64,000 nt of DNA. Source: Candidatus Magasanikbacteria bacterium RIFOXYD1_FULL_40_23 (GTDB lineage: Bacteria > Patescibacteriota > Patescibacteriia > Magasanikbacterales > GWA2-37-8). This document shows positions 23,003 through 48,830 of this stretch, piece after piece. Made by a program: the position numbers and the translations under genes. A model generated the notes under the pieces. That model saw only the letters and a program-made list of their open reading frames with translations. It was not told where the DNA came from and made no database searches. The DNA lies in NCBI GenBank assembly GCA_001783215.1, contig MFRA01000005.1, positions 254,322 through 318,321 of the forward strand, read 5' to 3'. The number at the start of each line of letters is the position of its first letter. Position 1 is the first letter of the stretch.

Positions 23003-23085
23003 TATATAGGGGCTAAAGCCACATATATGCTCATTCACTCAGAAATAAATAAGTTTACTTATTTATTTCTTCATTCATTTCGCAT
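23003..23085 (+). repeat. Family-C leader module, copy 1, ending at the start codon of the 23086 gene
   Basis: tatataggggctaaagccacatatatgctcattcactca + palindrome gaaataaataag-ttt-acttatttatttc + ttcattcatttcgcat + ATG. Confidence 0.75.
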
Positions 23086-26070: not shown

Positions 26071-26740
26071 ATGATTTGAAATTATCTAAATTAATAGCAT
26101 TTTTTAGTAAGTATTTGCCAATTTTTGTACGCATTAATTCTTGGCAATAAGCGCCAGTTTCTAACTTTGCGCCTATATCGTGAGCCAATGTGCGAATGTA
26201 GGTTCCTGCCGAACATTGTACTTCAATTTTTAAAATAGGCCAAGAGTATTCTAAAAGCTTAATTTTATAAATTTCTATTTCGTTTGCTTTTCTTTCTACA
26301 GTTATTCCTTTTCTAGCCAACTGGTATAGTCTTTGTCCGTCTACCCATTTGGCAGAAAACATTGGCGGAGTTTGTAGTTGTTTGCCAATAAAAGTTTTAA
26401 GTAGGCTTTTTATTTGTTTTTTGTCTGGTTGAATCATGCTGTGTGTATCATGCATCGTGATCTGTCCGGTTTTATCATCAGTATCACTTGTGGCTCCAAG
26501 TTTAATAGTAGCAATATACGTTTTGGGCATGTTTTTAAACCCGTCCAGTTTTTTGGTAGCTTCTCGGCCAACACCTACGATAAGCAGTCCGGTGGCAAAC
26601 GGATCCAGAGTGCCGGCATGACCAACCTTTACCCTTTTTTGTTTGTCGGGTAGGGGGGTCTTTTTAACACGGTTGCGTACAAAAGCTACAACATCAAAAC
26701 TGCTCCAGCCTTCGGGTTTGTTAATTAATAGGTAGTTCAT
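26051..26740 (-). CDS. truB: tRNA pseudouridine(55) synthase TruB
   Basis: INKPEGWSSFDVVAFVR...KVGHAGTLDPFATGLLIVGVGREATK, with the catalytic Asp in GTLDP. Confidence 0.9.
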   Translation of the reverse strand: MNYLLINKPEGWSSFDVVAFVRNRVKKTPLPDKQKRVKVGHAGTLDPFATGLLIVGVGREATKKLDGFKNMPKTYIATIKLGATSDTDDKTGQITMHDTHSMIQPDKKQIKSLLKTFIGKQLQTPPMFSAKWVDGQRLYQLARKGITVERKANEIEIYKIKLLEYSWPILKIEVQCSAGTYIRTLAHDIGAKLETGAYCQELMRTKIGKYLLKNAINLDNFKSYDEQSR

Positions 26741-26826
26741 AAACGAAATGAGTGAGCAAAGTAATAAGCCTGCTTAATTACTTTCGAGCGAATGAGTATA
26801 TATGCAGCTTTAGCCCATATATAGTA
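26741..26826 (-). repeat. Family-C leader module, copy 2, ending at the truB start codon (minus-strand orientation)
   Basis: Minus-strand read tatatgggctaaagctgcatatatactcattcgctc + palindrome gaaagtaattaagc-agg-cttattactttg + ctcactcatttcgttt + ATG(truB). Confidence 0.75.
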
Positions 26827-28972: not shown

Positions 28973-29365
28973 ATGAATTATGAGGCTAGAAAAATTAACA
29001 GCTTTGTTGATTTGAATGCTTGGCAGGAAGGGCATAAATTGGTTTTAGAAATTTATGAAATTACTAAAAAATTTCCCTCGGCAGAAAATTTTGGTTTGAC
29101 AAGTCAGATGCAGCGAAGTGCGGTATCTATAACTTCAAATATTGCAGAGGGTTTTGGCAGACAAACATATAAAGACAAAACACATTTTTATTTTATCTCG
29201 GCCGGTTCTTTAACAGAACTGCATAATCAAGTTATTATTTCCAAGGATTTAAAGTATATAACAATAGAAAAGTTCGGTGTTATAGGTGGTCAGATAATAA
29301 AGGTTCAAAAAATACTTAACGGCTTAATAAAAAGTTCAAAGTCTCGCATTATTCATAATTCCTAA
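28973..29365 (+). CDS. Four-helix-bundle protein (23S rRNA intervening-sequence protein family)
   Basis: AWQEGHKLVLEIY...FGLTSQMQRSAVSITSNIAEGFGR...ELHNQVIIS, the hallmark of the PF05635/TIGR02436 family. Confidence 0.8.
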   Translation: MNYEARKINSFVDLNAWQEGHKLVLEIYEITKKFPSAENFGLTSQMQRSAVSITSNIAEGFGRQTYKDKTHFYFISAGSLTELHNQVIISKDLKYITIEKFGVIGGQIIKVQKILNGLIKSSKSRIIHNS

Positions 29366-30462: not shown

Positions 30463-33400
30463 ATGCAGAAATACGATCCGAAAAAAATTGAAAAAAAGTG
30501 GCAGAAATATTGGGAAAAGAATAAAACTTTTGAAGTGCAAGAAGATGCTAAAAAAGATAAATTTTATTCTTTGATTGAGTTTCCTTACCCGAGTGGCGAG
30601 GGTCTTCATGTTGGCCATCCACGCCCATTTACGGCCATGGATGTGATAAGCCGCAAAAAAAGAATGGAAGGCAAAAATGTTTTGTTTCCCATTGGTTTTG
30701 ACGCTTTTGGTTTGCCGACCGAAAACTTTGCTATTAAAACCGGTAAACCGCCAGCCGAAGTAACGAAAAAAAATATTGCCAACTTTACCCGCCAGCTTAA
30801 AATGCTTGGGTTTAGTTTTGATTGGTCCAGGCAGGTAGACACTACTGACCCAAATTATTATAAATGGACCCAAAAATTATTTTTGCAATTTTTTAAACAT
30901 GGTCTTGCTTACAAAAAAAACCAGCCAATTAACTGGTGTCCAAAAGATAAAATCGGTTTGGCAAATGAAGAAGTGGTAAATGGAAACTGTGAGCGTTGCG
31001 GCACTCCGGTAGAAAAACGAAACAAAGAGCAGTGGATGCTTGCCATTACCAAATATGCCGATAAGCTTTTGGATGGTTTAAAAAACGTAGATTATATAGA
31101 GCGCGCTCGTTTGCAACAAGAGAATTGGATTGGTAAAAGCGAAGGTGCCGAAGTAGATTTCCCTCTTCGCATGGTACCAGGCCAGACAGATGATAAACAT
31201 TTTGTAAAAATATTTACTACTCGCCCGGATACAATTTTTGGGGCAACTTTTTTGGCAGTCTCTCCAGAGCTTGCTAAGAGTTGGTTAGATATAGGTTGGC
31301 AGGCTAGTGAAGAAGTAAAAAAATATATAACTCAGGCGCTTGAAGCTCGTACCGCGGTAACTGCTCGTGAAGAACAAGAAAAAACTGGTATAAGTGCCGG
31401 CATTGTGGCAATCAATCCAGTTTCCAAAAAAGAAATTCCAGTTTGGATAACCAATTATGTAATGGGTGAAGTTGGTACGGGTGCAATTATGGGCGTGCCG
31501 GCGCACGACCAGCGTGATTTTGATTTTGCCAAAAAGTTTGGATTGCCAGTTAAACAGGTGGTTATGCAAAATATTGTGGTGGCAGGTGCCGCCGCACCAC
31601 GAGAGGGCAAAGATTTAGTGCAGCGTAAAGTAGTGACAGGTATTATTCATAATCCAAAAAATGACACTTTTTTACTTTTACGACGTGCAGATAAAGAAAG
31701 TTCTTTCGTTGGTGGTACCATTGAAAATGGCGAAGATGCTATTACAGCCCTACGTCGTGAAATTGTGGAGGAAACTGGATATACAGATTTTGAAATTAAA
31801 AGTACTTCTTTTCCTAATTTTTTTGGTAATGGCTATAAATTACGTATTGATAAAAATTGTTTGGACTTTGAATATTTTTATGCAGTTGAGCTAAAGAGCG
31901 AAGATCGTCAGGAAGTCAGCAAGGAAGAACTAGCAAAGCATGAACCATTTTTGGTACCACGCGCAGAAGTGTCTAAGACAATTACGCTTACAATGCATCA
32001 ATACATGTGGAAATATTATACAGAGGAAAAACCAAAGTATTTAATTTTTGATTTTGATGGGGTAATTGGTAATACTTTTGAGGCGTGTGCTAAGGCACAG
32101 ATGGTTATAGATAATAAAAGTAAGGAAGAGGCAGTTGAAGCAATGACAAGATATTTTAGCAGTAAGCCAAATCATGCCAAGGGGCACAGTCTTACAGAGA
32201 TAGAGATGGTTGCGAAGCTTGATTGGACGCGCAGATTTGGCGAAGAAATGGCAAAGCTAGAGTATTCATTATTTAGTAAATTTAATAAAGAAATAAAAAA
32301 CATACCAAATACAAAGGTTGCTATTATTTCTGCGGGTTCCGGATTATATATTAGAAATAGAATAGAAGAAACCGGCCTTAACCCAAGCCATGTTCTTACC
32401 TTTGAAGACCATCATTCCAAAGAAGAAAAAATAGAACAGGTCTGCAAAGATTGGGGAGTGTCTATGAAAGACGTTTATTATTTCACTGATTCCAAAGCAG
32501 ACGTATACGAATTGGAAGATTGTTTGGATCGTAAAAAAATAATCGGCTGTGCTTGGGGTTATTGCGGGTATGATCTATTGCGAGAATTGTTGCCAGAAAA
32601 CCAGGTATTAAAAAATCCAGAAGATATCCATTTGTTATTTGCAGATTCGGTTTACGAAAATGAAGGTGTGGCTGTGGAGTCAGAATTTTTAAATGGTTTA
32701 AAAACACCGGAAGCTAAACAAAAAATGATTAGTTGGTTAGAAGAAAATAGAATAGGCAAAAAACAGATAAATTATAAACTTCGCGACTGGGTTTTTTCCC
32801 GTCAGCGATATTGGGGTGAGCCAATTCCGCTTGTGCATTGCGAGAAATGCTCTGGCTGGGTTCCTCTTCCCGAAGATGAATTGCCGCTCAAATTGCCAAA
32901 AGTAGAAAAATATCAGCCAACCGATAATGGCGAATCTCCTTTGGCCGCAATGGAAAAATGGGTAAAAACTAAATGCCCAAATTGTGGCGGTCCGGCCAGA
33001 CGAGAAACAGATACTATGCCAAATTGGGCTGGTTCAAGTTGGTATTTTTTGGCCTATGCAATGGGTGGAGAAAAAAGATTAAAAGAAAAAGGCGATAAGT
33101 TTTGGGATAAAGAAATGCTAAAACATTGGCAACCTGTAGATTGGTACAATGGGGGAATGGAACATACAGTTTTGCATTTGTTGTATTCTCGTTTTTGGAA
33201 TCAATTCTTGTACGATATTGGTATGGTGCCAACACCCGAGCCGTATGCCAAGCGCACATCACACGGCATGATTCTCGCCAAGGGTGGAGAAAAAATGAGT
33301 AAATCCAAAGGAAATGTTGTAAACCCGGATGAAATGGTGGAACAGTTCGGCGCTGATGCTTTGCGCGCTTATATTATGTTTATGGGTCCGTTTGATCAGG

Positions 33401-33957
33401 CAGTAGAGTGGGATACAAATGGGCTAGTTGGGGTGAAAAGATTTTTGGATAAAGTATGGAATTTGCAAGAAAAAGTTGAAAATAAAATTACAGATACTAA
33501 AATTGAGACGGCTTTACATCAAACTATTAAAAAAGTTACCGAAGATATAGATGCGATGCGGTTTAATACAGCGATTGCCAAGATGATGGAATTGGTGAAT
33601 GAGATGTCAAAAGCGGATAAGATTTCAGTTGTAAATTATACTTATTTAGTTCAAATTTTGGCGCCATTTGCTCCACACCTGTGTGAAGAACTGTGGGATG
33701 TGCTTGGACATGAAAAATCATTAGCCTGTGAATCTTGGCCGCAATTTAATCCGGAATTAATAAAGGAGAGTGAAGTCACTTTGGCTGTCCAAGTAAATGG
33801 AAAATTGCGCGATACAATAACTGTGGCCGCAGACATATCGGAAGAAGAGGCCAAAAGGACGGCGCTATCAAGCGAAGCAGTTAAGAAGTGGCTAGAAGGT
33901 AAAGAGCCAAAAAAAGTTATCTATGTAAAAGGCAAGTTGGTGAGTGTGGTGGTTTAG
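30463..33957 (+). CDS. leuS: Leucyl-tRNA synthetase with a ~400-aa internal insertion carrying Nudix-hydrolase-like and HAD-hydrolase-like modules
   Basis: HVGH (class I HIGH motif), CP1/editing blocks (TTRPDTIFGATFLAVSPE, VPAHDQRDFDFAKKFG), KMSKS, an anticodon-binding C-terminus. Insert at ~31570-32770 has GGTIENGEDAITALRREIVEETGY (perfect Nudix box Gx5Ex7REUxEExGU), LIFDFDGVIG (HAD motif I) and VAIISAGSG. Confidence 0.9.
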   Translation: MQKYDPKKIEKKWQKYWEKNKTFEVQEDAKKDKFYSLIEFPYPSGEGLHVGHPRPFTAMDVISRKKRMEGKNVLFPIGFDAFGLPTENFAIKTGKPPAEVTKKNIANFTRQLKMLGFSFDWSRQVDTTDPNYYKWTQKLFLQFFKHGLAYKKNQPINWCPKDKIGLANEEVVNGNCERCGTPVEKRNKEQWMLAITKYADKLLDGLKNVDYIERARLQQENWIGKSEGAEVDFPLRMVPGQTDDKHFVKIFTTRPDTIFGATFLAVSPELAKSWLDIGWQASEEVKKYITQALEARTAVTAREEQEKTGISAGIVAINPVSKKEIPVWITNYVMGEVGTGAIMGVPAHDQRDFDFAKKFGLPVKQVVMQNIVVAGAAAPREGKDLVQRKVVTGIIHNPKNDTFLLLRRADKESSFVGGTIENGEDAITALRREIVEETGYTDFEIKSTSFPNFFGNGYKLRIDKNCLDFEYFYAVELKSEDRQEVSKEELAKHEPFLVPRAEVSKTITLTMHQYMWKYYTEEKPKYLIFDFDGVIGNTFEACAKAQMVIDNKSKEEAVEAMTRYFSSKPNHAKGHSLTEIEMVAKLDWTRRFGEEMAKLEYSLFSKFNKEIKNIPNTKVAIISAGSGLYIRNRIEETGLNPSHVLTFEDHHSKEEKIEQVCKDWGVSMKDVYYFTDSKADVYELEDCLDRKKIIGCAWGYCGYDLLRELLPENQVLKNPEDIHLLFADSVYENEGVAVESEFLNGLKTPEAKQKMISWLEENRIGKKQINYKLRDWVFSRQRYWGEPIPLVHCEKCSGWVPLPEDELPLKLPKVEKYQPTDNGESPLAAMEKWVKTKCPNCGGPARRETDTMPNWAGSSWYFLAYAMGGEKRLKEKGDKFWDKEMLKHWQPVDWYNGGMEHTVLHLLYSRFWNQFLYDIGMVPTPEPYAKRTSHGMILAKGGEKMSKSKGNVVNPDEMVEQFGADALRAYIMFMGPFDQAVEWDTNGLVGVKRFLDKVWNLQEKVENKITDTKIETALHQTIKKVTEDIDAMRFNTAIAKMMELVNEMSKADKISVVNYTYLVQILAPFAPHLCEELWDVLGHEKSLACESWPQFNPELIKESEVTLAVQVNGKLRDTITVAADISEEEAKRTALSSEAVKKWLEGKEPKKVIYVKGKLVSVVV

Positions 33958-34017: not shown

Positions 34018-34413
34018 TTGGATGTCTTTATGCCCACTCAACATGAACAGAGGGTTTTAATTGTAGAAGATGATGCGTTGTTGGCCCAGGTCTTAGCCAG
34101 CTCTTTTAACGAGGTGAAGTTTGGTGTTTTAAATATATATAACGGCTTAGAGGTTCTGGATGCCGCCAAAAAGTTTGAACCCGCTGTTATTTTATTGGAT
34201 CTAATTTTGCCAGGTATAGACGGTTTTGAAGTCTTGAAACAGTTAAAAGCAGATGTGCAAACTAAAAATATTCCTGTGGTAATAATCTCCAACTTAACTG
34301 ATGCTGCCGATATAAAATCAGCTCTTGCGTTGGGGGCAGTTGAATATTTTATCAAGGCCAATACTCAGCTAGAAAAAATAGTAGATTTTGTTAAAAAGAT
34401 AATTAAGGATTAA
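34018..34413 (+). CDS. Single-domain response regulator (CheY-like receiver)
   Basis: RVLIVEDD...LLDLILPGIDGFEVLKQLK...PVVIISNL...GAVEYFIKA, with the phospho-acceptor Asp in LLDL. Confidence 0.8.
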   Translation: MDVFMPTQHEQRVLIVEDDALLAQVLASSFNEVKFGVLNIYNGLEVLDAAKKFEPAVILLDLILPGIDGFEVLKQLKADVQTKNIPVVIISNLTDAADIKSALALGAVEYFIKANTQLEKIVDFVKKIIKD

Positions 34414-34418
34414 ATAGT

Positions 34419-34814
34419 ATGTCCGCGCCTTCAAAGATGGTTTTACTAATTGTAGAGGACGATGAAGTGTTATTAAGAGCTTTGTATATTCTTTTTCACA
34501 AGAGTAAATATACTATAGCATCTGCTACCGACGGTGCTATGGCTGTACAAATGGCGCAAAGACTAAAGCCAAATTTAATTTTATTAGATTTATTACTTCC
34601 CAAAATAAATGGTTTTGAGGTGTTAAGAATTGTTAAATCAGATCCAGCACTCAAAGAAACGCCTGTTATTATATTATCAAATTTGGGTAGCGCCGAAGAT
34701 GTCGAAAGGGCCAAGGCGGGTGGTGCGATTGATTATTTTATCAAAGCCAATACCGATTTGTCCGTTTTAGAAAATAAAATCAAGCAAGTTTTAGAGATTA
34801 AAACTCAGTCATAG
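34419..34814 (+). CDS. Single-domain response regulator (CheY-like receiver)
   Basis: VLLIVEDD...LLDLLLPKINGFEVLRIVK...PVIILSNL...GAIDYFIKA. Confidence 0.8.
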   Translation: MSAPSKMVLLIVEDDEVLLRALYILFHKSKYTIASATDGAMAVQMAQRLKPNLILLDLLLPKINGFEVLRIVKSDPALKETPVIILSNLGSAEDVERAKAGGAIDYFIKANTDLSVLENKIKQVLEIKTQS

Positions 34815-34847
34815 AGCTTTTAATCTGTGGCGGCTAAATAGAATCAA

Positions 34848-35672
34848 ATGAGATCTGCATGGTTAAATCTGGTTTTATCTTTAACCAACCGCATCTATTC
34901 TCGCAAGCAAGAACTAATCCACAGCACAGGTGTAAAGGGGATGCGACATGTTTTTGTTTTGATTTCTTTAGAAATTATTTTAGCTTTTATTTCTACGCCG
35001 CTTTATTTGGGCATAAAATCCGCTTCCGTCTCCGCCTATTTTAGAGAAAAGGGCGGTTATGAAAAAATAAATTTTGATTATAATATTCGTCGAGTCCTAA
35101 CTCTTACAGGGGTGGGTATTTTTTTATTAATTTGGTTGTTCAAATTGGCGATAATTATTTTTGTGCCGCAAGCGTATGGGCCGTTGCCACTTTATCGTGT
35201 TGGCAATCTTGAACCTATAGATATGGTAGTAAGCGGTGATTTAGCTGCTACCAGCGTTGCTTTCCAAACTGCAAAAACATTGAGTTCTTTACCGTCACCC
35301 CAGTTAAAAGAAATTCGTAAAGTTGCCGGCGGTACCTATGTTTTTATTGGCAATAGTCAGCCTAGCATGGAGGTAGTTTTGTTATTATCAGAAAAAAATA
35401 CCATTGTTTATTCTGGTGCGGCAGATAAAAATGGCCGTTGGGAGATAAAACATTCGCAAAAAGATATCAGGCTTAGCGAGGGCAACCATTCGGTTTTAGT
35501 CTATAATTTTGATGCAAAATCCGGTGTGCGTAGTGTGGCTGCGGGAGAAAAGTTTTTCAAAATTACCAATACCTGGATTGATTCATTGGTTAAAGATGTG
35601 GATGTTTCGGCAAATTGGTCAGTGGTGTTAATTGTAATAGTTGGTATTTTGTTAACTTTTTTAACCCTTTAG
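34848..35672 (+). CDS. Hypothetical membrane protein (start possibly MRHVFVL, about 34940)
   Basis: Two N-terminal TM helices, an extracytoplasmic domain and a C-terminal TM (WSVVLIVIVGILLTFLTL). Confidence 0.45.
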   Translation: MRSAWLNLVLSLTNRIYSRKQELIHSTGVKGMRHVFVLISLEIILAFISTPLYLGIKSASVSAYFREKGGYEKINFDYNIRRVLTLTGVGIFLLIWLFKLAIIIFVPQAYGPLPLYRVGNLEPIDMVVSGDLAATSVAFQTAKTLSSLPSPQLKEIRKVAGGTYVFIGNSQPSMEVVLLLSEKNTIVYSGAADKNGRWEIKHSQKDIRLSEGNHSVLVYNFDAKSGVRSVAAGEKFFKITNTWIDSLVKDVDVSANWSVVLIVIVGILLTFLTL

Positions 35673-35723
35673 AGTTTGAAGAGGATTTGTTTTAGGGGCC
35701 AGGATTAATTTGTAAAAAGCCGT

Positions 35724-38700
35724 ATGGTAAAAAGTTTTTTAAATTTTTTCTTTCATTATTCAGGGGCTGTTTTTCGAATTAAGCGCCATATTTTGGAAGC
35801 GGACAAATGGTACAAATCAGTATTTTTTTCATTGATACTATTTTTTGTTGAATTTATTTTTGTAGTTATTTCTTTGCCTTTTTATTTTTTAATTTCTCCC
35901 AAAAATCTGCATGAGCGTGGATTTATATTTCCTTCATCCAAAGATGATTCAATGGCCTTTAAACATTTTGTTGCTAGGCGCAAGATAAGCGCAATTACCC
36001 TTATTAGCGTTTCGGCAGTTTGGGCGTTTAAAGTCTTTTTGTTGGGAGCAATTTCTTATATTTTTTTTGGAGCCGCGCAGATTTTTGCAGATACGCATAC
36101 GTGGGTATTTTCAAATCCTAGTAGTTATACTTATAATTCGTCTCTCGTAGAGGTGGCTGGGGGAGAGGCAAGACTAAAAGATATTGGTGGCACCACTATA
36201 GTTACTACTACTAACCCAGGATTTAATAGTAATGCCACTGGTTGGACTTATGCCGATTGGAATCAGAGTGGTGGAGAGGTAAATGTGGCTGGTACCCGTA
36301 TAACTACTGGTGGTAATCCTGGTGGATGGGTGAGAATTAATTTTCCTATTGGCAATGGCGATGAGTTGGGCGGATATTATCGTCAACCGTTTGTTATTAG
36401 CTTATCTAACCCGTCTACCACTGTTAGTTTTGATTGGCAGGTTTTGGCGCACGATTCTACGCCCGCGCCTGTTACTTTTAAGATGATGGTGTTTGTAGAT
36501 AGGGCAAGTAGCGTTCCTGTAATAGGTCAGGAAGTTTGGTCTTCTGGAGAAATTACTTCTACCAGCACTTGGCAATCAATTTCCAATTTGGATGTTTCGT
36601 CCAAAGTAACTAGCACGGGCACGTATTATCTAAAAGTAGCTGTTTGGCTAGAAACACCTGGTTCAAACACGGGTCCGTTTACTATTGGTTATGATAATAT
36701 TTTGTTAACCTCTGCCAGTACATCCCATGTATTTTCTTCGTCATTACCATCTATTGCGCCAAACACATCTCTTTCTGATACAAAAATTGTAAGTTGGAAT
36801 TCGTTTAGTGAAACCGCCATAAAAAATGGCGGGCAAATTTATTATCAATTATCCGATGATGATGGTGTTAGTTGGAAATATTGGAATGGTTCGTCTTGGG
36901 CAGCGGCTGCCACAACCACTAATTCCAACACTTCTTCTGTTATAAATGCTCATATTTCATCTTTCACCACCAGTACAAATCAAATAAAATGGAAAGGATT
37001 TTTATCGAGTGACGGAACTCAGCAGGTAAGTTTGAGCGCCATTAATATTGATTACACATCAAACAACCGTCCTGCTGTTCCAAGCATATCTGCCAGCCAA
37101 CAAACAAGCGATGGGTTGGTTAATGTAAATTATATTTTGCAAGATGCAGAAAGCGATCTGTCTAGTTTGTCTGCTTATGAATATTCATTTGATTTGGAAA
37201 ATTGGTTTGTAATGACAGCTGCAGTTTCAGATCCGGAGCATAGTGGAATTAATAATTTACTGTCTTCGCCTGTTGGGGTAGCACATACTTTTGTTTGGAA
37301 TGCATTGGCAGATTTGGGCAGTACATATAATAGTTCAGTTTATGTTCGCTTGCGTGCTAATGATGGCATAGCCGATGGCCCCTACGCCACCTCTACTATT
37401 TTTGCTGTAGATTATGTAGTCCCAACAGTTTCTAATTTATCTGCCGCACAAGATTTGGGTAGTGCTAGCGTGCGTTTTGTTTATGACCTATTTGATAATA
37501 CAAGCAGTGATTTATTTGTGGAATTGTTAATTTCCGATGATGGTGGCAGTACTTGGAATGTGGCTTCCAGTTCAGTGTCGGGCGATGTTGGCGCAGGGTT
37601 ATCTTCTGGCACAAACAAAACTATTACATGGCAGGCCGTCGCCGATTTTGTAAATCAGGAGCAAGACGATATGCAGGTACGCATACGCGCTCGTGATAAG
37701 TTTTCCAATCAAGGTAATTTTGTTACTTCAATCAATTTTTTGGTAGACACGCAAGTGCCAACGGTAAATACAACCACCAATTTGTTGGCTCAGCCAAATG
37801 CAGGGGATAGCTCGGTTTTAGTTGGGGGTTCTTTTCATGAATCAAATCCTGGGACCAGTAGTTTTTTTGTGGCTATAAATGGCGGTGATTATGGCGCTGT
37901 TACTTATGGTGAAGGGTACACAGCCTCGCCTTCTCCACAGCTTGTTAGCATGGGTGCGCCACTTACTGGTGCAGATTATATTTCCAAAGTATCTTTGTCT
38001 TTAGAAGATAAGTATGGTCATACCGGGCAAAACGAAAATACTTCTCCAGAAAGTTCTTATAAATATGTAAAGCCTTATACTCCACCAGCACCCGCTATAA
38101 GCAATCCGCAATCCAGTACTTTGGATTTAGTAATAAGTAAGCATGCAGACGAAATTGACGGTCTGGAGTATGCAATTTTTGAAGGTTCACAATCAAAATA
38201 TATACAAGACGACGGAACTTTAGGTGATAGCCCTGTTTGGAAATCTTTGGGAACTGGTGTTGGGCAGTGGGGCGAAGGTGGCGAAGCAGGCAAGGTGATT
38301 ATACAAAATTTGAGTCAACCAATTTCTGCATATGTATTCCAAATAAAATCTAGAAATATTAGTGATTCGTTTCATGCGGCTAGCAGCGAGAGTGGTTTGT
38401 CTGGTGGTGCTTCTTTATCTTATATTTCCCCATCTATTAACATATCAATCAGTTCTTTGGCGCAAACTGCGGATGGTACAAAGTATGTGCCAATTAGTTA
38501 TTCCGGTGCGGATGCGCAAAGCAATTTAAATAGTTTGGTGGTTTACGAATACTCTACAGACAATACGACGTGGCAGACGATGACAGAGAAAACAGGTGTA
38601 GGATCGGATGGAAAAAATAATTTAGTTTTTGCTCCGGCTGGCACCGAACATATGTTTGCTTGGGATGTGGGGGCTGATTTATCTGGTGTAGAATTTTCTA

Positions 38701-40742
38701 CGGTTCGTGTTCGTCTGCAATCTTATGATGGTGTTGGAAATAGTAATTTATCTGTTTCTTCAGTTTTTGAAATCGATACTGCCGGTCCGGTAATATCTGG
38801 CATACAAGCCGCTCAATCTGTGGGCAGCAGTACTGTAAATGTAAGCTATGATTTATCCGACGGGGCCGGCATAAACAATGTCGTAGAGTTTTTGATTTCT
38901 AGCAATGCTGGCGTTGACTATTTGGTGCCTACTACGACTGTGGTTGGAGATGTTGGGGCAGGAATAAGTTCCGGTGTAAACAAAAATATTGTTTGGAACG
39001 CTGGCGTGGATTTTGCAAATCAAACTTCAGCGGCTATGCGTGTAAAAATTATGGCCACAGATCGTTATGGTAATGTTGGGAGCTTTACCGAATCGTCCAA
39101 TTTTAATTTAGACACCAGTAAGCCTGTCTTGGTGGTAACTGGTGCGGCGCAGGTTGTCGGTACAGATTTAATGGCAGTAAGTTATAATTTGTCAGATGTA
39201 AGTTCCACTATCACGTTGTGGATATCTGCAGATGGTGGCTCCACTTGGTTTATTCCGACCAGTTCTGTGAGCGGGGATATTGGTTTTGTATCTTCGGCTG
39301 GCGATAAAACTCTTGTGTGGAATATGGCAACCGATTTTATTGATCAAGAAACAAATAGCGCCGTAGTACGCATCATGGCCACAGATTATTTTGGAAATAT
39401 TAGTGACTATGCATCTTCGTCTATTTTTTCTTTGGATACCAAAGCGCCAATAATTAGCACTGTAAGCGCTGCACAGATTGCGGGCACATCTAACGTTTCT
39501 ATAAATTACGATTTTTCTGATCTCTCTTCTTTGTCTAATGTTTATATAGAAATTTCATCTGACGGCGGTTTATCTTGGAGTGTGGCTACATCTACTTTGG
39601 CTGGTGATGTTGGTGTGGGCGTGTCTACGGGAAGTGGTAAACAAGTATCTTGGAATGCTGGCGTTGATTTGCCAAACAGAGAGGTGCAAAACGCCAGAGT
39701 TCGTATTATGGCCACAGATAATCAAGGCAATAGCAGCGCTAAATTTATTTCTAATGATTTTGTTGTAAATACAATTATTTCATCAGCAGCAGAAACTCCT
39801 GCTGTGAGCGGTGGCGGTGTGGCTATTCCTATAACCACAGTTCCTGAAACAGAAGATACAGTTGCCCCAGGCGCTCCGATTGTTTTTAGTCCGGACGATA
39901 ATAGTAATATTAGTGAAACAGCCCTTGTTTTAATTGGTGGTACCGAGCCCCTGGCAGTTGTAGAGTTAATTTTAAATGAAGAAGAAACGTTTAACGCTTA
40001 TGCTGATAATAATGGTACTTGGCGTTTTGTATTACCGTCTGCGGTTATATTAAAAGAAGGTGCTAATGTTTTCCAAATTAATGCTAAGGATGAGGCGGGG
40101 AATGTTAGCGCTTCACTATTTTTTAGATTAAACAAAGCGGTTCTTACAGCTGCTGGTATCGTTCCTATTTTCACCACAAGTCCTATTGTTACAGCCCCCA
40201 TCATAACAACTCCAGCTCCAGTCATTATTCCAACCAGGCCAGTGGCACCTACTCCCGCCACCGCTCCAGTTATTGCTGAGGTAAATAGAGCGGTTGAAGT
40301 GCTAAGTATTCCTGCGCCAGAGGTGGATTTAGTTGTATCGCCAGTTCAAGAGAACTTGTCTACCAACGATATTATAAGATTTAGCGGTATAGCTTTGCCA
40401 AACCAAGAATTAATTGTGTATGTGCATAGTGAACAGGCCTTAATTTATAGAGCAAAAGCCAACAATCAAGGTGTGTGGTCTGTAGACCATTCACAAAAAT
40501 CTTTCGAACTTGCACCTGGCGTTCACACAGTATATGCAGTCGGGCTTAATAACGGGTATAATATAAAAAGTAGACCAGGTTTGGTAAAAACTTTCACAGT
40601 CAGTAAAAATTATTGGGTGGCAGCTTTTAATTATTTAAATTTACAGACAACGATAATAGCCACGGCGGTTTTAATTTTTGCTATGGGTTGGTTATATATA
40701 TTACGAAAAAGAGAGCAAGGTTATTTTACAAAAAATTTATGA
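35724..40742 (+). CDS. Giant (1672 aa) cell-surface protein with at least 6 tandem ~110-aa repeats bearing BNR/Asp-box-like motifs (SxDGGSTW), a Pro/Thr-rich linker, Ig-like C-terminal domains and a C-terminal TM anchor
   Basis: N-terminal TM helices. Repeats with ISDDGGSTWNV, ISADGGSTWFI, ISSDGGLSWSV and the VSGDVGAGxSSGxNKxIxWxAxxDFxNQ consensus. PAPVIIPTRPVAPTPATAP linker. C-terminal IIATAVLIFAMGWLYILRKRE. Confidence 0.8.
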   Translation: MVKSFLNFFFHYSGAVFRIKRHILEADKWYKSVFFSLILFFVEFIFVVISLPFYFLISPKNLHERGFIFPSSKDDSMAFKHFVARRKISAITLISVSAVWAFKVFLLGAISYIFFGAAQIFADTHTWVFSNPSSYTYNSSLVEVAGGEARLKDIGGTTIVTTTNPGFNSNATGWTYADWNQSGGEVNVAGTRITTGGNPGGWVRINFPIGNGDELGGYYRQPFVISLSNPSTTVSFDWQVLAHDSTPAPVTFKMMVFVDRASSVPVIGQEVWSSGEITSTSTWQSISNLDVSSKVTSTGTYYLKVAVWLETPGSNTGPFTIGYDNILLTSASTSHVFSSSLPSIAPNTSLSDTKIVSWNSFSETAIKNGGQIYYQLSDDDGVSWKYWNGSSWAAAATTTNSNTSSVINAHISSFTTSTNQIKWKGFLSSDGTQQVSLSAINIDYTSNNRPAVPSISASQQTSDGLVNVNYILQDAESDLSSLSAYEYSFDLENWFVMTAAVSDPEHSGINNLLSSPVGVAHTFVWNALADLGSTYNSSVYVRLRANDGIADGPYATSTIFAVDYVVPTVSNLSAAQDLGSASVRFVYDLFDNTSSDLFVELLISDDGGSTWNVASSSVSGDVGAGLSSGTNKTITWQAVADFVNQEQDDMQVRIRARDKFSNQGNFVTSINFLVDTQVPTVNTTTNLLAQPNAGDSSVLVGGSFHESNPGTSSFFVAINGGDYGAVTYGEGYTASPSPQLVSMGAPLTGADYISKVSLSLEDKYGHTGQNENTSPESSYKYVKPYTPPAPAISNPQSSTLDLVISKHADEIDGLEYAIFEGSQSKYIQDDGTLGDSPVWKSLGTGVGQWGEGGEAGKVIIQNLSQPISAYVFQIKSRNISDSFHAASSESGLSGGASLSYISPSINISISSLAQTADGTKYVPISYSGADAQSNLNSLVVYEYSTDNTTWQTMTEKTGVGSDGKNNLVFAPAGTEHMFAWDVGADLSGVEFSTVRVRLQSYDGVGNSNLSVSSVFEIDTAGPVISGIQAAQSVGSSTVNVSYDLSDGAGINNVVEFLISSNAGVDYLVPTTTVVGDVGAGISSGVNKNIVWNAGVDFANQTSAAMRVKIMATDRYGNVGSFTESSNFNLDTSKPVLVVTGAAQVVGTDLMAVSYNLSDVSSTITLWISADGGSTWFIPTSSVSGDIGFVSSAGDKTLVWNMATDFIDQETNSAVVRIMATDYFGNISDYASSSIFSLDTKAPIISTVSAAQIAGTSNVSINYDFSDLSSLSNVYIEISSDGGLSWSVATSTLAGDVGVGVSTGSGKQVSWNAGVDLPNREVQNARVRIMATDNQGNSSAKFISNDFVVNTIISSAAETPAVSGGGVAIPITTVPETEDTVAPGAPIVFSPDDNSNISETALVLIGGTEPLAVVELILNEEETFNAYADNNGTWRFVLPSAVILKEGANVFQINAKDEAGNVSASLFFRLNKAVLTAAGIVPIFTTSPIVTAPIITTPAPVIIPTRPVAPTPATAPVIAEVNRAVEVLSIPAPEVDLVVSPVQENLSTNDIIRFSGIALPNQELIVYVHSEQALIYRAKANNQGVWSVDHSQKSFELAPGVHTVYAVGLNNGYNIKSRPGLVKTFTVSKNYWVAAFNYLNLQTTIIATAVLIFAMGWLYILRKREQGYFTKNL

Positions 40743-43153
40743 AGCAGAGTGATTTACCCCCTAATCAAACGAAAAACAATTTAGCTGTCGCAGCTAAAAA
40801 CTTTTCGGAAGTTTCGGCAACGGCTGTCTTTTTAGTGGGTATTTTGGTTTTAATTGGGTGGCAGTTTGATATTGGATTTTTAAAGAGTGTGCATAGCGGC
40901 TTTGTTACAATGAAGCCAAACACAGCTTTAGGGGTTGTATTTTTGGGTTTATCTTTGTGGTTGTTGCAAGAAAAACGAATGCGTAGCTGGTTAAAGTATT
41001 TGGGCTGGGGCTCTGCGCTTTTTGTATTATTTATAGGCCTTACTGCAGTGCTGGAGCATATAACCGGGATAAATTTAGGTGTTGATATGCTTTTATTTCG
41101 AGAGTCTAGCCCAGCACCTTTTACTACTTTTCCGGGTCGAATGGCTTTAAATACCGCATTTTGCTTTGTTTTTTTTGGGATTTCTCTTTTGTACTTAAAT
41201 ATAAAAACAAAAAACGGGCTGCACCTGTCGGTAATCCCGGCTGTTTTTAGTGGTTTGGTAGCCTTGGTGGTTATAGTAGGTTATTTTTATGATATATCTC
41301 AATTTTATTTTGGAGCAAAGTTTGATACGCTTATGGCTTTGCATACAGCCCTTGCGTTTTTTATCGCTAGTTTGGGGGTTTTGTTTGCTCGTCCAGAAGG
41401 CAACCTAACCAGGGTTTTTATAGGTGCTAATTTATCGGGTGTTACTATTCGTCGTCTATTTCCGCTGGCCTTTTTGGTGCCGTTGCTTTTTATTTGGTTA
41501 GAACAAGTTGGAAATCGGTATCATTTATATGGCCATGATTTTGGGATGTCCATCACTGCTGCTGCCAGCATCGTGGTGCTCGCCACGCTTATTTGGGTGC
41601 ACGCTGTTTTGATGGAAAAGAAAGAAGACGCTCGTTTAAAAGCAGTCAAGGAGTTGGTTATAGCTACAGAAGAAGCAAGGCGGCTTTCATTTTTAGTTGA
41701 AAACACAATTGAGGCTGTCGCAATAGTTGATTTAGAAGATCATAACGCTTTGCGCTATGTTAACAGCGCTTGGGAAAAAATGTTTGGCTATAAGAAAAAT
41801 GAAGTAGAAAACAAAAGAGAGCCCTTAATTATTGATGCTATCAAGAAAAATCCTGCGTTGTATAAAAAGTTTAAAGCTTCCATAGCGGCGCATGTTCCGT
41901 TTTATGCGGAAATGGAATGGGAAAGAAAAGATGGAAAGTTGGTACCTGTAGAAGTGTTTACCACTCCCACTCAAGATCCAAATACCGGGAAGTATATTTG
42001 GTTTAATACTATCCGCGATATAAGTGAACGCAAACAAGCACAAGGTAAGCTTCTGAAAGAGAAAAGGGTGTCTGAATTATTAGCTAAGGATTTAAAAAAG
42101 TTTCAATTAGCAGTAGATTCTTCTTCGGACCATATTATGATTACCGATGCCGAAGGGAAAATTTTATATGGAAATAAGGCGATAGAGTCTATTACGGGTT
42201 ATGCTATCAGTGAAATTATAGGGAAAACCGTTGGTCAAGTTTGGGGTGGGCATATGCCCAAAGAGTTTTATGTTAAATTATGGCATAAAATAAAAACAGA
42301 AAAAAAGATGTTTGTAGGAGAGCTAACTAATTACAGAAAGGATGGCACGCCATACACGGCCGAGGTACGAATAAGTCCTATTTTGTTTGATGACGGTGAA
42401 GTTAATTTTTTTGTTGGTGTCGAGCGAGACATTACCAGGATGAAAGAAGTAGACAAAATGAAATCGGAGTTTGTTTCTCTAACCTCTCATCAGCTCAGCA
42501 CTCCGCTTACAGCTATAAAATGGTATGTTGAAATTTTGTTAAAAAAGAAGCATGGATCCGAAGATAAGAAAAATCTGAAACAGATATATGCTAGCAACGA
42601 ACGAATGATCAGATTGATTAGTGATTTGTTAGATGTGTCTAGAATTGAGTCTGGAAACAAGTTTGCTATTATTTTAAAACCTAAAAACATCGCTTCTTTA
42701 ATAAAAGAGATTGTAGATACGTCTTTAATTTCTATAAAGACTAAGCATCGTCAGGGAGTAATAAAATTAGAAGATAAATTTCCTGAAGTTTTGAAATTAG
42801 AAATTGATGAAAATAAAATACGCCAGGTTTTTCAAAATCTCATTGATAATGCTATAAATTACTCTGTGGATAGAATTAAAATATCTGTTGGATGCAAAGA
42901 AGAAGGTGGCCAGATTGTTTTTCATGTTAAGGATACAGGTATTGGCATACCCAAAGTACAACAGGGTCGTGTTTTTGAGAAATTCTTTCGTGCCGACAAT
43001 ACAGCTTTGCTCAAATCTCAGGGCACTGGTTTGGGGTTGTACCTGTCCAAAGCTATTGTAGAGGGGCATGGAGGAAAAATACGGTTTGAATCCGAAGAGG
43101 GTGCGGGAACTACCTTCTACTTTTCTTTGCCGTTAAATCGTGGTAAGCTGTAG
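40739..43153 (+). CDS. Sensor histidine kinase (multi-TM N-terminal sensor, two PAS domains, HisKA, HATPase_c). Start taken at the ATG overlapping the upstream stop (ATGA).
   Basis: About 8 TM helices in the first 330 aa. PAS-like EAVAIVDLEDHNALRYVNSAWEKMFGY and DHIMITDAEGKILYGNKAIESITGY. H-box LTSHQLSTPLTAIKWYVEIL. N/G-boxes VFQNLIDNAINYS...GTGLGLYLSKAIVEGHGGKI. Confidence 0.85.
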   Translation: MKQSDLPPNQTKNNLAVAAKNFSEVSATAVFLVGILVLIGWQFDIGFLKSVHSGFVTMKPNTALGVVFLGLSLWLLQEKRMRSWLKYLGWGSALFVLFIGLTAVLEHITGINLGVDMLLFRESSPAPFTTFPGRMALNTAFCFVFFGISLLYLNIKTKNGLHLSVIPAVFSGLVALVVIVGYFYDISQFYFGAKFDTLMALHTALAFFIASLGVLFARPEGNLTRVFIGANLSGVTIRRLFPLAFLVPLLFIWLEQVGNRYHLYGHDFGMSITAAASIVVLATLIWVHAVLMEKKEDARLKAVKELVIATEEARRLSFLVENTIEAVAIVDLEDHNALRYVNSAWEKMFGYKKNEVENKREPLIIDAIKKNPALYKKFKASIAAHVPFYAEMEWERKDGKLVPVEVFTTPTQDPNTGKYIWFNTIRDISERKQAQGKLLKEKRVSELLAKDLKKFQLAVDSSSDHIMITDAEGKILYGNKAIESITGYAISEIIGKTVGQVWGGHMPKEFYVKLWHKIKTEKKMFVGELTNYRKDGTPYTAEVRISPILFDDGEVNFFVGVERDITRMKEVDKMKSEFVSLTSHQLSTPLTAIKWYVEILLKKKHGSEDKKNLKQIYASNERMIRLISDLLDVSRIESGNKFAIILKPKNIASLIKEIVDTSLISIKTKHRQGVIKLEDKFPEVLKLEIDENKIRQVFQNLIDNAINYSVDRIKISVGCKEEGGQIVFHVKDTGIGIPKVQQGRVFEKFFRADNTALLKSQGTGLGLYLSKAIVEGHGGKIRFESEEGAGTTFYFSLPLNRGKL

Positions 43154-43189
43154 GGTAATAAAGGCGGGGTTTAATTTAGTAAGAATATC

Positions 43190-43416
43190 TATAGGGGCTA
43201 AAGCCCGCGGCGCGCTCACTCATTTCGATTATATGGGCTAAAGCCACATATATACTCATTCGCTCATAAATAATTTCATTAGAAAATAATTGAGCAAGCT
43301 CATTATTTTCTCACTCATTATTTAACTCACTCACTTCGTATATATAGTTAAACATATATTTTCACTCACTCGGAAATAAATAAGCAAGCTCATTTATTTC
43401 CTCATTCATTTCAAAT
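43190..43416 (+). repeat. Family-C leader module, copy 3 (tandem, with an extra truncated head), ending at the start codon of the 43417 response regulator
   Basis: ataggggctaaagcc-cgcggcgcg-ctcactcatttcg, then tatatgggctaaagccacatatatactcattcgctca ... palindrome ggaaataaat-aagcaagctc-atttatttcc + tcattcatttcaaat + ATG. Numerous TCACTCA/TCATTCA reiterations. Confidence 0.75.
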
Positions 43417-43788
43417 ATGAAAAAAATTCTTATAGTAGAGGACGAATTGGCGTTATTGTATGCTTTAGCATCTCAGTTTGATAAAAAAGAATTTAAAGTT
43501 CTTCAGGCTGTGGATGGCGAAGAAGGCTTAAAAACTGCCCTAAAGTCACATCCGGATTTAATTTTATTGGACTTGCTTATGCCGAAAATGGATGGCATGT
43601 CTATGTTAAAAGAATTGCGCAAGGATTCTTGGGGTAAGGGTGTAAAAGTAATAATTTTAACCAACCTAAGTGATGCAGAAAAAATTGATGAAGCGTTAAA
43701 GCAGGGGACATATGATTATTTAGTAAAAAAAGATTGGAACATTTCCGAAGTAATTGAAAAAGTGAAAGCTAGTCTGGGTATGAAATAG
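43417..43788 (+). CDS. Single-domain response regulator (CheY-like receiver)
   Basis: KILIVEDE...LLDLLMPKMDGMSMLKELR...KVIILTNL...YDYLVKK. Confidence 0.85.
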   Translation: MKKILIVEDELALLYALASQFDKKEFKVLQAVDGEEGLKTALKSHPDLILLDLLMPKMDGMSMLKELRKDSWGKGVKVIILTNLSDAEKIDEALKQGTYDYLVKKDWNISEVIEKVKASLGMK

Positions 43789-45400: not shown

Positions 45401-46014
45401 GCTATAATTTGGCTGCTGATGTTTATGATGAAAATGAAAATTATCTAAATAGTTTTGAGCAAGGAGAGCTTATCCCTTTGCTTGGTGCGTTGGATGGCAA
45501 AAGAGTTTTAGATGTTGGGGCAGGCACGGGCCGGCTATCTTTGCCTTTGGTAAGTAGAGGTGCACACGTTACGGCTCTAGATGTATCGCCTAAAATGTTA
45601 GATTTAATAAAAAAGAAGCAGCGCCGCGTTTCAATGAACGTTACGCGGCATGATTCCGTTGAATCAAAAATTACCACTGTGGTTGGTGATGCGGAAAGTT
45701 TGCCTTTTGAAAATAATACTTTTGATATTGTGACAGCTGCGTTTTTAATTGTACATCTCAAAAATCCGACCAGATTTTTTGACGAAGCGTACAGAGTCTT
45801 AAAAGACGGAGGGATTTTGGTGGTGACCAATATTAATCAGAAGGATCCGCCAACAGTAAAAACAAAAGAGGGAAAAATAATTATAGAATCTTTTTATCAT
45901 CGCCCAGAAAAAGTTGTAGAAATATTAGAATCGTTGGCGTATGGAATTGAAGAAAATGTTTTTGTAAAAGAGGGGAGTCTTTGGGTAGATCAGATTGTGG
46001 TGGCGAGGAAATAA
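45364..46014 (+). CDS. Class I SAM-dependent methyltransferase carrying an in-frame Family-B repeat (~17 aa: QRRVSMNVTRHDSVESK)
   Basis: Motif I VLDVGAGTGRLSL; post-I DVSPKML; motif II/III GDAESLPFENNTFDIV...AFLIVHL. Confidence 0.8.
   Translation: MAKKAKVLSSEVGYNLAADVYDENENYLNSFEQGELIPLLGALDGKRVLDVGAGTGRLSLPLVSRGAHVTALDVSPKMLDLIKKKQRRVSMNVTRHDSVESKITTVVGDAESLPFENNTFDIVTAAFLIVHLKNPTRFFDEAYRVLKDGGILVVTNINQKDPPTVKTKEGKIIIESFYHRPEKVVEILESLAYGIEENVFVKEGSLWVDQIVVARK
45618..45672. repeat. Family-B hairpin repeat, copy b (inside the methyltransferase CDS, in frame)
   Basis: agcagcgccgcgtttcaatgaacgttacgcggcatgattccgttgaatcaaaaatt; stem gccgcgt/acgcggc. Confidence 0.7.
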
Positions 46015-48737: not shown

Positions 48738-48830
48738 TCGGGCTTCAATGGACGCGCCGGCCGCGTTTCAAAGGACGTGACGCGGCATGATTACGTCGAA
48801 TCAATTTCGTTAAATCAAATCTTAAATTTT
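48738..48830. repeat. Family-B hairpin repeat, copy c (nusA-yidC intergenic; partially reiterated)
   Basis: gggcttcaatggacgcgcc + ggccgcgtttcaaaggacgtgacgcggcatgattacgtcgaatcaa + tttcgttaaatcaaatc. Confidence 0.65.

Follow-up and report, generated by a model that had tools for sequence, protein, structure and literature searches.

In the WalK-YycH/YycI, LiaS-LiaF and SaeS-SaeP/SaeQ systems, membrane-anchored proteins with extracytoplasmic domains are encoded beside a PAS-containing HisKA kinase, and these accessory membrane proteins control the WalK, LiaS and SaeS kinases. Here, we describe a six-gene cassette with a similar arrangement in Patescibacteria, which make up a large share of bacterial diversity, have tiny genomes and in many cases live attached to host cells, and whose sensing and control of surface contact are almost unknown. 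The cassette lies in a stretch of 64,000 nucleotides (nt) from Candidatus Magasanikbacteria bacterium RIFOXYD1_FULL_40_23 (contig MFRA01000005.1, positions 254,322 to 318,321 of the forward strand; this whole stretch is called the window) and encodes two receivers (RR1 and RR2), a small membrane protein (mem), a very large surface protein (giant), a histidine kinase and a third receiver (RR3). In contrast to the WalK, LiaS and SaeS systems, it has three stand-alone receivers instead of a DNA-binding regulator, its accessory proteins form a new family with a distinctive anchor, one of them being a rod of 1.3-3.3 thousand residues, and some of the orthologous kinases are soluble. Neither mem nor giant had a Pfam or NCBIfam match to the YycH/YycI families, and no WalR-like DNA-binding regulator was found in the cassette. 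The genes are arranged as follows.

34030..34413 (+): RR1, a stand-alone receiver of 127 amino acids (aa) from the likely ATG at 34030, which is also the start in the public gene call; the open reading frame opens at TTG 34018
34419..34814 (+): RR2, a stand-alone receiver of 131 aa
34848..35672 (+): mem, a membrane protein of 274 aa with an N-terminal anchor, one immunoglobulin (Ig)-like (Big_13-like) domain, and a C-terminal amphipathic segment plus transmembrane (TM) segment
35724..40742 (+): giant, a surface protein of 1672 aa
40739..43153 (+): kinase, a PAS histidine kinase of 804 residues
43154..43416 (+): spacer between kinase and RR3, 263 nt, with 1.5-2 copies of a ~85-nt hairpin-containing leader element ('Family C'); lineage-specific
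43417..43788 (+): RR3, a stand-alone receiver of 123 aa

These coordinates agree with the gene order given in an earlier note that was made from the letters of the window (the original prediction), and the overlap of giant and kinase by an ATGA that it reported is seen at 40739-40742, where the ATG of the kinase at 40739 overlaps the TGA of giant at 40740-40742.

A second group of described systems shares the layout. The gene order pilG-pilH-pilI-pilJ-chpA parallels that of the cassette. PilG/PilH of the Pseudomonas Chp system are reported to be a single-domain receiver pair that acts antagonistically on a surface machine (PMC10519157), and the same is reported of the response regulator pair of the cyanobacterial Tax1 system (PMC11181946). 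In Chp/Tax1 as in the cassette, two adjacent CheY-like receivers stand before a small and a large, receptor-like protein and a kinase. The output of Chp/Tax1 runs by protein-protein contact with a surface machine (PMC10519157, PMC11181946), and the same is proposed for the cassette. The likeness is one of layout only, as no CheA, CheW or MCP domains were found by Pfam, the kinase is of the classical HisKA dimer type, and a pilus gene stands beside a single cassette (the P0048 locus, see below). The best relatives of the kinase core in the PDB come from the HK853-RR468 pair of Thermotoga maritima (3dge_A, E 1.6e-38); however, that system has a single receiver, a different input domain and no associated surface proteins.

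We observed the order RR-RR-mem-giant in every locus examined, that is, in about 20 independent relatives, and kinase followed by RR3 wherever the sequence reaches past giant. When one genome per GTDB species was searched in a pattern scan, 16/16 loci from species representatives had RR1-RR2-mem-giant. Three of these entries (L010, L016 and L024) duplicate the contigs of L006, L009 and L008, respectively, and do not count as further independent cases. The full order RR-RR-mem-giant-kinase-RR is present in L006 (a relative with 71% identity), L007 (CG10 Magasanikbacterium), L008 ('Patescibacteria group') and L009 (Buchananbacterium). Cassette-bearing loci are labelled as 'Patescibacteria group' or as Magasanik-, Uhr-, Buchanan- or Falkowbacteria, and the arrangement is held across at least these four candidate phylum-level lineages. 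Among the loci, giants range from 1650 to about 3260 aa and mem is constant at about 273 aa. The intergenic gaps measure -4 to 52 nt, with the 263-nt gap between kinase and RR3 of the window as the exception (5-39 nt in relatives). In L008 and L009 neither LeuRS nor ComEC, the neighbours of the cassette in the window, flanks it, and flanking genes differ between lineages. As the gene order is kept where the flanking genes differ, the genes look like one unit by more than their ATGA overlap, and the proposal of a co-functioning unit in the original prediction gains support. Four cassette-bearing metagenome-assembled genomes (L010, L011, L018 and L023) have records titled 'uncultured Gammaproteobacteria bacterium', one of them with a giant 71% identical to that of the window; these titles look like taxonomic mislabelling.

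Three more distant cassettes vary the theme. The first (the P0048 locus) has a dCache_1-PAS kinase, and the genes after it encode a polysaccharide deacetylase, an additional (fourth) receiver and a PilB-type ATPase; the second has a separate PAS protein and a dCache_1-HAMP-PAS kinase; and the third is reduced, with one receiver and a 271-aa unannotated protein that are transcribed divergently from giant and a GAF kinase. The invariant set consists of the kinase core, three distinct output-less receivers, mem and giant. The cassette is a self-contained signalling-plus-surface module of ABY1-type Patescibacteria. In genomes that are poor in regulators, it nevertheless spares a kinase and three receivers for two surface proteins, along with up to about 10 kb of coding sequence; since it is also held across the lineages, we regard it as a strong candidate for a core cell-surface control circuit. 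A search of the full-text literature found no description of the cassette in Patescibacteria, its proteins are 'hypothetical' or generically named in the source databases, and NCBIfam gave no equivalog-level match for any of the six. Thus, the two-component kinase, the CheY-like receivers and the FN3, Ig and carbohydrate-binding-module (CBM) domains are known, whereas their fixed combination and the paralogous anchor pair described below are unfamiliar.

With Pfam, the three receivers match Response_reg only (RR1, E 3.3e-20; RR2, E 3.2e-21; RR3, E 4.5e-24), and no DNA-binding or enzymatic output domain was detected by Pfam on the receivers of the window or its relatives. The phospho-acceptor Asp, the acidic pocket, the Ser/Thr and the Lys are kept in all 15 receivers aligned (in RR1 as DD / LLD-L / S-N-L / F-I-K). 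The receivers can thus be phosphorylated as far as their residues indicate, and the earlier statement that all three, with 123-131 aa, are without an output domain is borne out. They form three separate orthologous groups across cassettes, with identities of 45-75% for RR1, 54-84% for RR2, and 53-82% for RR3 in L006, L009 and L026, RR3 being more divergent in L007 and L008. Paralogous receivers share about 30-43% identity with each other (RR2 versus RR1, about 40%). Of the features of a classical two-component system, the cassette has the HisKA H-box and HATPase_c domain of the kinase and the catalytic residues of the receivers, and it lacks the output domain. One receiver in the set is extended: RR2 of L026 (5605-6222), one of the more distant cassettes, bears a ~85-aa C-terminal Lys/Pro-rich low-complexity tail (KKPIIKKP...).

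The kinase consists of two parts.

40739..41638 (+): kinase residues 1-300, membrane sensor domain with about 7 TM segments by hydropathy
41681..43153 (+): kinase residues 315-804, PAS, PAS, HisKA and HATPase_c

Pfam detected two PAS domains (PAS_9, E 4e-32), HisKA (E 2e-17) and HATPase_c (E 1.7e-29), which together with the hydropathy profile matches the PAS-containing multi-TM histidine kinase of the original prediction. The H-box is SHQLSTPL (SHQL[RS]TPL across cassettes), and the kinase core and adjacent PAS domain are orthologous across cassettes with 36-65% identity. The nearest relatives of the core among PDB sequences are HK853, WalK and VicK (E down to 1e-39). In NCBIfam, the WalK, PnpS and PhoR models score highest on the core, yet under their cut-offs, and a match to 'MASE3_PAS_HK' is restricted to the PAS-kinase part.

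The input part differs between lineages. About 7 TM segments are present in the kinases of the window, L006 and L007; the kinases of L008 and L009 have no TM segment, with extra PAS domains in place of the multi-TM domain; and among the three more distant cassettes, dCache_1 is found in two and GAF in one. Residues 1-300 of the window kinase had no Pfam match at E < 0.05 and matched no known membrane sensor family at E <= 5. Homologs of this multi-TM domain are fused to HisKA, HisKA_3, GGDEF, STAS and PAS outputs in proteins labelled as Pseudomonadota, Cyanobacteria, Thiobacillus and Legionella. Because the homologs carry so many different outputs in other phyla, the domain appears to be a generic, modular and unnamed membrane sensor module. 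The second PAS domain scores against LOV proteins, but GKTVGQVW replaces GxNCRFLQ and the flavin-binding Cys motif is absent, and a LOV photoreceptor was therefore rejected.

The two remaining invariant genes encode membrane proteins, and for giant we distinguish the following parts.

35724..36089 (+): giant residues 1-122, conserved membrane anchor (from hydropathy, alignment with mem proteins, column counts and segment charges)
36093..37055 (+): giant residues 124-444, head module made up of a CBM-like beta-jelly-roll and, after it, a beta-sandwich with an Asp-box
37071..37763 (+): giant residues 450-680, repeat units A1 and B1, predicted FN3-like sandwiches, with a short Asp-box at 488 (A1) and a full one at 604 (B1)
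37764..38438 (+): giant residues 681-905, two further ~110-aa domains with a conservation of 52-56%
38445..39743 (+): giant residues 908-1340, repeat units A2, B2, B3 and B4 (BLAST of units, E 1e-18 to 3e-30)
39744..40742 (+): giant residues 1341-1672, a linker, an Ig domain (1393-1464), a Pro/Thr-rich linker, an Ig-like domain (1546-1632), a segment and TM (1640-1662) and a basic tail

Going by the alignments, mem is a miniature paralog of giant that consists of the common anchor and the membrane-proximal Ig domain, without the rod. By BLASTP, residues 166-244 of mem match residues 1553-1632 of giant, in its last Ig-like domain, with E 2e-8, and the first ~120 residues of the mem and giant families align convincingly. 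The shared anchor starts with a basic amphipathic N-terminus (W-L-N-L...K-Q); next come a hydrophobic segment that contains an S-L-P-x-Y motif as well as an invariant Glu, a basic loop with R-R-K at its end, and a second TM segment (TM2), in which a Lys is invariant. In giants, E43, P52, K103 and A122 are each kept in 25-26 of 27 sequences; the invariant residues of mem are E42, P51, K99 and R81. By hydropathy, each of the two proteins has a pair of hydrophobic segments at its N-terminus and a single one at its C-terminus.

The mem family comprises 169 clusters at 90% identity, nearly all of 262-275 aa and about 50% identical, and has neither a Pfam domain nor a name. A profile search against 1.84 billion representatives returned 668 matches, 283 of them at E <= 1e-10, which include roughly sixty full-length clusters of ~250-285 aa and many giants that are matched through their C-terminal Ig-plus-TM part. 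A more distant mem homolog (P0249) sits on a 1.4-kb contig. Mem, the anchor and the head module are covered by no Pfam or NCBIfam family. The analysis thus defines two protein families without current annotation, namely the ~273-aa mem family and the shared anchor domain.

The charges of the segments are +4 or +5 for the N-terminus, +2 or +4 for the loop, -1 or -2 after TM2 and +2 for the tail. With these positive charges, the positive-inside rule predicts that the N-terminus, the loop and the tail are cytoplasmic, in which case the first hydrophobic segment would be re-entrant or hairpin-like. In giant, TM2 ends in the invariant Ala122 in an 'LLA|A/D-T-Q' context, which resembles the junction after the signal-peptide-like N-terminal segments of P0067 and P0073, two proteins that start with the head module. 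Cleavage by signal peptidase at Ala122 is therefore possible, and the head would then lie at the distal tip of the rod. This qualifies the earlier view that giant is anchored at both ends: both TM regions are predicted and conserved, but the one at the N-terminus could be removed at this site.

We suggest that the cassette is a branched two-component pathway that is coupled to the mem-giant complex by protein-protein contact, a reading to which we give slightly less than an even chance. The kinase would phosphorylate the three receivers in a one-to-many pathway, one receiver possibly acting as a phosphate sink. As the receivers are without an output domain, they would have to work through protein-protein contact, for which the kinase and the mem-giant pair are the sole conserved candidates; with mem and giant as the only other invariant genes, direct binding to the mem-giant complex is the most likely mode of action. 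No DNA-binding, enzymatic, HPt, CheA, CheW or MCP domain was found by Pfam in the cassette genes. Probable docking sites are the short conserved basic cytoplasmic segments of the complex, with the N-terminal amphipathic stretch, the loop ('EKGxYEK..FDYxLRR' in mem, 'xRGFIFP..YxVRRK' in giant) and the C-terminal tail of giant as candidates, and docking would resemble the binding of CheY-P to a short peptide of its target. Since the kinase input is lineage-specific and the kinase is sometimes soluble, the conserved coupling would run via the cytoplasmic faces of mem and giant rather than via membrane-embedded contacts. Such a link could carry cues from the kinase to a glycan-binding surface rod and set its state (adhesion or envelope contact), or it could run the other way and inform the pathway of the state that the rod is in; we favour the inside-out direction, from kinase via receivers to the surface complex, only slightly. 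The cassette points to an undescribed wiring of phosphorylation signalling directly to a cell-surface structure.

Several points weigh against a branched pathway that contacts mem and giant. The coupling is deduced wholly from gene order, and small genomes pack unrelated genes tightly. In the window, a 263-nt repeat-bearing spacer parts the kinase from RR3, and scans for promoters and terminators gave counts equal to those in shuffled sequence and so say nothing on an operon. The conserved cytoplasmic stretches of mem and giant are short, and the topology of the anchor is a prediction, with either a membrane-crossing or a re-entrant course for the first hydrophobic segment. What the cassette makes testable is the question of the partners of output-less receivers whose sole conserved neighbours are membrane proteins.

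Signals might instead run from the outside in, with giant and mem detecting contact or a glycan and controlling the kinase as a three-component sensor, in the manner of the accessory proteins of WalK, LiaS or SaeS, and the receivers signalling to targets elsewhere. The position of giant fits such a sensor, as it always lies immediately upstream of the kinase (gap -4 to 11 nt, with the ATGA overlap in the genome of the window); the about 7 TM segments of the window kinase could contact the anchors, the CBM-like head predicted for giant would be suited to ligand binding, and the cytoplasmic loops of mem and giant are conserved. However, TM segments are missing from the orthologous kinases in the cassettes of L008 and L009, others bring their own dCache_1 or GAF input, and the multi-TM domain is generic and swappable. 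With soluble kinases and swappable inputs, membrane-embedded coupling cannot be the conserved mechanism, and the targets of the three output-less receivers are also left unexplained. We consider a sensor of this kind plausible but rather unlikely. For the claim of the original prediction that surface protein and kinase form a sensory unit, this means that the shared cassette stands, whereas sensing via giant is weakened by the TM-less kinases of two lineages and by the dCache and GAF kinases.

A bolder version of contact between receivers and surface proteins combines both directions. The mem-giant pair may be a bidirectional transmembrane receptor complex with integrin-like logic, in which the receivers would dock in a phosphorylation-dependent manner on the conserved ~25-30-residue cytoplasmic segments of a two-paralog anchor with a buried Glu-Lys pair, and would so switch a ~50-nm glycan-binding rod in its conformation or adhesiveness, the head of this rod being shared by giant pilin-like proteins of the group. 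In this full form we hold the idea to be speculative and unlikely. If true, it would be a dedicated host- or surface-contact switch in ultra-small symbiotic bacteria and a new output class for single-domain response regulators.

Alternatively, the genes could be co-located and not directly coupled. Type IV pili, DNA uptake or some other machine would then be under the control of the kinase and receivers, with giant as a co-expressed adhesin or envelope protein. ComEC follows RR3 after 2-7 nt in the window, L006 and L007, the cassette of the P0048 locus precedes a further receiver and a PilB-type ATPase, and the head module of giant is common to prepilin-type proteins. Yet the cassette is intact where ComEC and LeuRS are absent, and the six genes alone are invariant. 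When the window and 26 cassette-bearing loci were scanned for motifs, neither prepilin nor PilB-type signatures came up, and Pfam found no pilus genes among the window proteins scanned. The link to type IV pili is left with the shared head module and one PilB-type gene near one distant locus, and we therefore rejected a linkage to type IV pili by neighbourhood. Mere co-location is, in our view, a plausible but unlikely explanation.

A multistep His-Asp-His-Asp phosphorelay, which the original prediction had suggested and in which the stand-alone receivers would serve as Spo0F-like intermediates, is very doubtful. RR1 matches Spo0F with E of about 4e-15, but this score is no better than those of the MtrA, RR468 (3dge_C, E 1.5e-14, among the best relatives of RR1 in PDB sequences), PleD or DivK receivers; furthermore, the kinase has no receiver domain and is thus not a hybrid, no HPt or Spo0B-like protein occurs in any cassette, and the cassettes have no terminal output regulator.

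The remaining alternative concerns giant itself, which the original prediction had described as a BNR-repeat protein: that the repeats form an Asp-box beta-propeller of the sialidase or Vps10 type, making giant a glycosidase- or propeller-type protein, is hardly credible, since the four exact S-x-D-x-G-x-x-W motifs, although well above chance, occur only once per ~110-aa unit, no BNR family of Pfam matched giant at E <= 0.01 (whole protein) or at E <= 5 (fragments scanned, the A/B units not being among them), and the predicted fold of the repeats is a sandwich. This fold comes from an AlphaFold2 model of giant residues 445-680 (A1 and B1), for which 21 homologous segments were aligned; with a predicted local distance difference test score (pLDDT) of 93.6, it contains two seven-stranded beta-sandwiches. 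When the model was compared to the PDB with Foldseek, all of the top 50 matches were tandem pairs of FN3-type domains, including contactin, gp130, neogenin, interferon receptors and titin (E down to 6e-7), and none was a propeller. The motif does not recur once per four-stranded blade, and a closed 5-10-bladed propeller is not formed in the model. At the level of prediction, the BNR-repeat structure is thereby refuted according to the criterion set in the original prediction. The A and B units are thus predicted to be FN3-like sandwiches, A1 and B1 by the model and the other units by homology.

BLAST of units against giant yielded six ~110-aa repeat units of two types, with type A at residues 450-560 and 908-1015 and type B at residues 561-680, 1016-1127, 1128-1235 and 1236-1340. 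Six units in two types had been described before as tandem and alternating, which is only partly the case, as their order is A-B, two other ~110-aa domains, and A-B-B-B. These two domains (residues 681-905) are probably FN3-like as well, judging from their sequence pattern and from an fn3 (PF00041) match somewhere in the homologs P0018 and P0022. The Asp-boxes, first noted as SxDGGSTW-type motifs, are well founded: the four copies (residues 377, 604, 1168 and 1278, with a degenerate copy at 1059) compare to a mean of 0.019 copies in 2000 shuffles of giant, and their residues are invariant in 22 homologs. The A units have the short form S-x-D-x-x-x-W at an aligned position (488 and 944), which is called a 'short Asp-box' in the literature (PMC2716378). 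In reelin repeats, chitobiase and sulfite oxidase, too, a single Asp-box hairpin occurs per jelly-roll or Ig-like sandwich and not per propeller blade. Giant differs from these in being bacterial and membrane-anchored and in having no EGF module, and the likeness is not based on sequence homology. As the hairpins of reelin brace domain-domain contacts and support a rod-like shape (PMC2716378), the Asp-boxes of giant may by analogy be rod stiffeners. As a practical rule, Asp-box motifs in long repeat proteins should not be taken as BNR propellers.

In all, giant is a rod of about 13 FN3- and Ig-like beta-sandwich domains, some of them with a single Asp-box; about twelve sandwich domains come after its CBM-like N-terminal head. 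The only Pfam domain found in it is the Big_13/Big_6 Ig domain at residues 1393-1464 (Big_13, E 1.9e-10); the second Ig-like domain, at residues 1546-1632, is homologous to that of mem. Between the two lies a linker rich in Pro, Thr, Ala and Val (residues 1471-1545), which is read directly from the sequence as in the original prediction and is of the wall-spanning type near the C-terminal TM. A conserved 'NFWV..LNLQTT' segment precedes this TM. The first subdomain of the head shows the beta-jelly-roll fold of carbohydrate-binding modules and galactose-binding-domain-like proteins (comparison structures: the Kgp K1 domain, CBM4-2, a hyaluronan-binding module, CBM61 and CBM16). This jelly roll is, going by the modelled fold, probably glycan-binding; no Pfam CBM family matched the head module.

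The head module (residues 124-444) recurs outside the giant family and is often tandem-duplicated in Patescibacterial proteins of ~950-1450 aa. Relatives of this kind (P0028-P0064) have prepilin-like N-termini with G-[FQ]-S-L-[VIL]-E and a hydrophobic helix, and several have a Pfam N_methyl domain or a prepilin-type name. They carry the module in one copy or in two tandem copies, so that these giant pilin-like proteins and the rod of the cassette have a probable binding domain in common.

From the head to unit A2, conservation along the ectodomain of giant is even (about 50-57%), and this speaks for a structural role or a conserved ligand and against a fast-evolving, host-specific adhesin. If its N-terminal anchor is cleaved, giant resembles adhesins of the Gram-positive type in its series of binding head, stalk of sandwich domains, Pro/Thr-rich linker, TM and basic tail. 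However, it differs from them in several ways: LPXTG and similar motifs are absent, a conserved anchor of ~120 aa takes the place of a plain signal peptide at the N-terminus, the ectodomain is evenly conserved and not variable, and a mini-paralog is always present as partner. Sortase anchoring was rejected, as a regular expression found no LPXTG-type motif near the C-terminus, where the conserved motif is NFWV..LNLQTT.

The ~85-nt element in front of RR3, predicted earlier as a 'Family-C leader', is a real repeated element that is present at three places in the window, each abutting a start codon: 23007-23085 (+), 26741-26819 (-) and 43190-43416 (+). These lie directly upstream of three unrelated starts, namely those of an open reading frame at 23086, of TruB at 26740 and of RR3 at 43417, where 1.5-2 copies stand in tandem. 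The element has the form TATGGGCTAAAGCyrCATATATnCTCAYTCrCTC, then an AT-rich hairpin, then CTCAYTCATTTCG..ATG. The hairpin arms vary between copies in a compensatory way, and three of four folded copies are more stable than shuffles (z -4 to -6). Rfam detected two tRNAs in the window and nothing in the spacer between kinase and RR3, and the element is absent from the corresponding gap of relatives.

The cassette is surrounded by housekeeping genes, with DNA polymerase III alpha, TsaD, RNase Y, TruB, IF-2 and LeuRS upstream and ComEC, a methyltransferase, an MBL-fold protein, NusA, YidC, GroEL and RF-1 downstream. As the base composition is also uniform across the whole window, the region belongs to the chromosomal core and is not an island. 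The contig of the window is also present in several groundwater-type metagenomes, and giant shows 100% identity to a hypothetical protein of a Candidatus Magasanikbacteria metagenome-assembled genome (RIFOXYD1_FULL_40). An origin from Patescibacteria would fit the epibiotic or symbiotic lifestyle that the original prediction held to be plausible.

The LeuRS gene next to the cassette (30463-33957) encodes 1164 aa with NUDIX and HAD domains inserted mid-protein; the LeuRS of L006 and of the P0048 locus, at about 1008-1013 aa, has an alpha/beta-hydrolase insert and that of L007, at 832 aa, has no insert. An essential enzyme thus seems to have a site at which insertions vary. Further upstream, at about 28973-29365, lies a gene for a 130-aa protein of the 23S-rRNA-IVP / bAvd four-helix family. 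A diversity-generating retroelement targeting giant was considered for this bAvd-type gene and rejected, as the whole-window repeat search found no template/variable repeat pair, although no search aimed at a reverse transcriptase was made. Two other repeats were observed in the window. A 45-nt repeat (45623-45667 and 48760-48804, copies 89% identical) contains the GC-rich inverted repeat GCCGCGT...ACGCGGC, and its two copies lie within the methyltransferase gene and immediately behind NusA, respectively. An inverted pair of 41-nt repeats (3726-3766 / 60024-60064; TTTGTCATTCTGAGGCGCAGACGAAGAATCCC...) is 88% complementary over a distance of 56 kb and is possibly another dispersed repeat family. 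Lastly, positions 56741-58504 encode a 587-aa fusion of a Sua5/YciO/YrdC domain (tRNA t6A synthesis) and a DUF4015 putative glycosyl-hydrolase domain.

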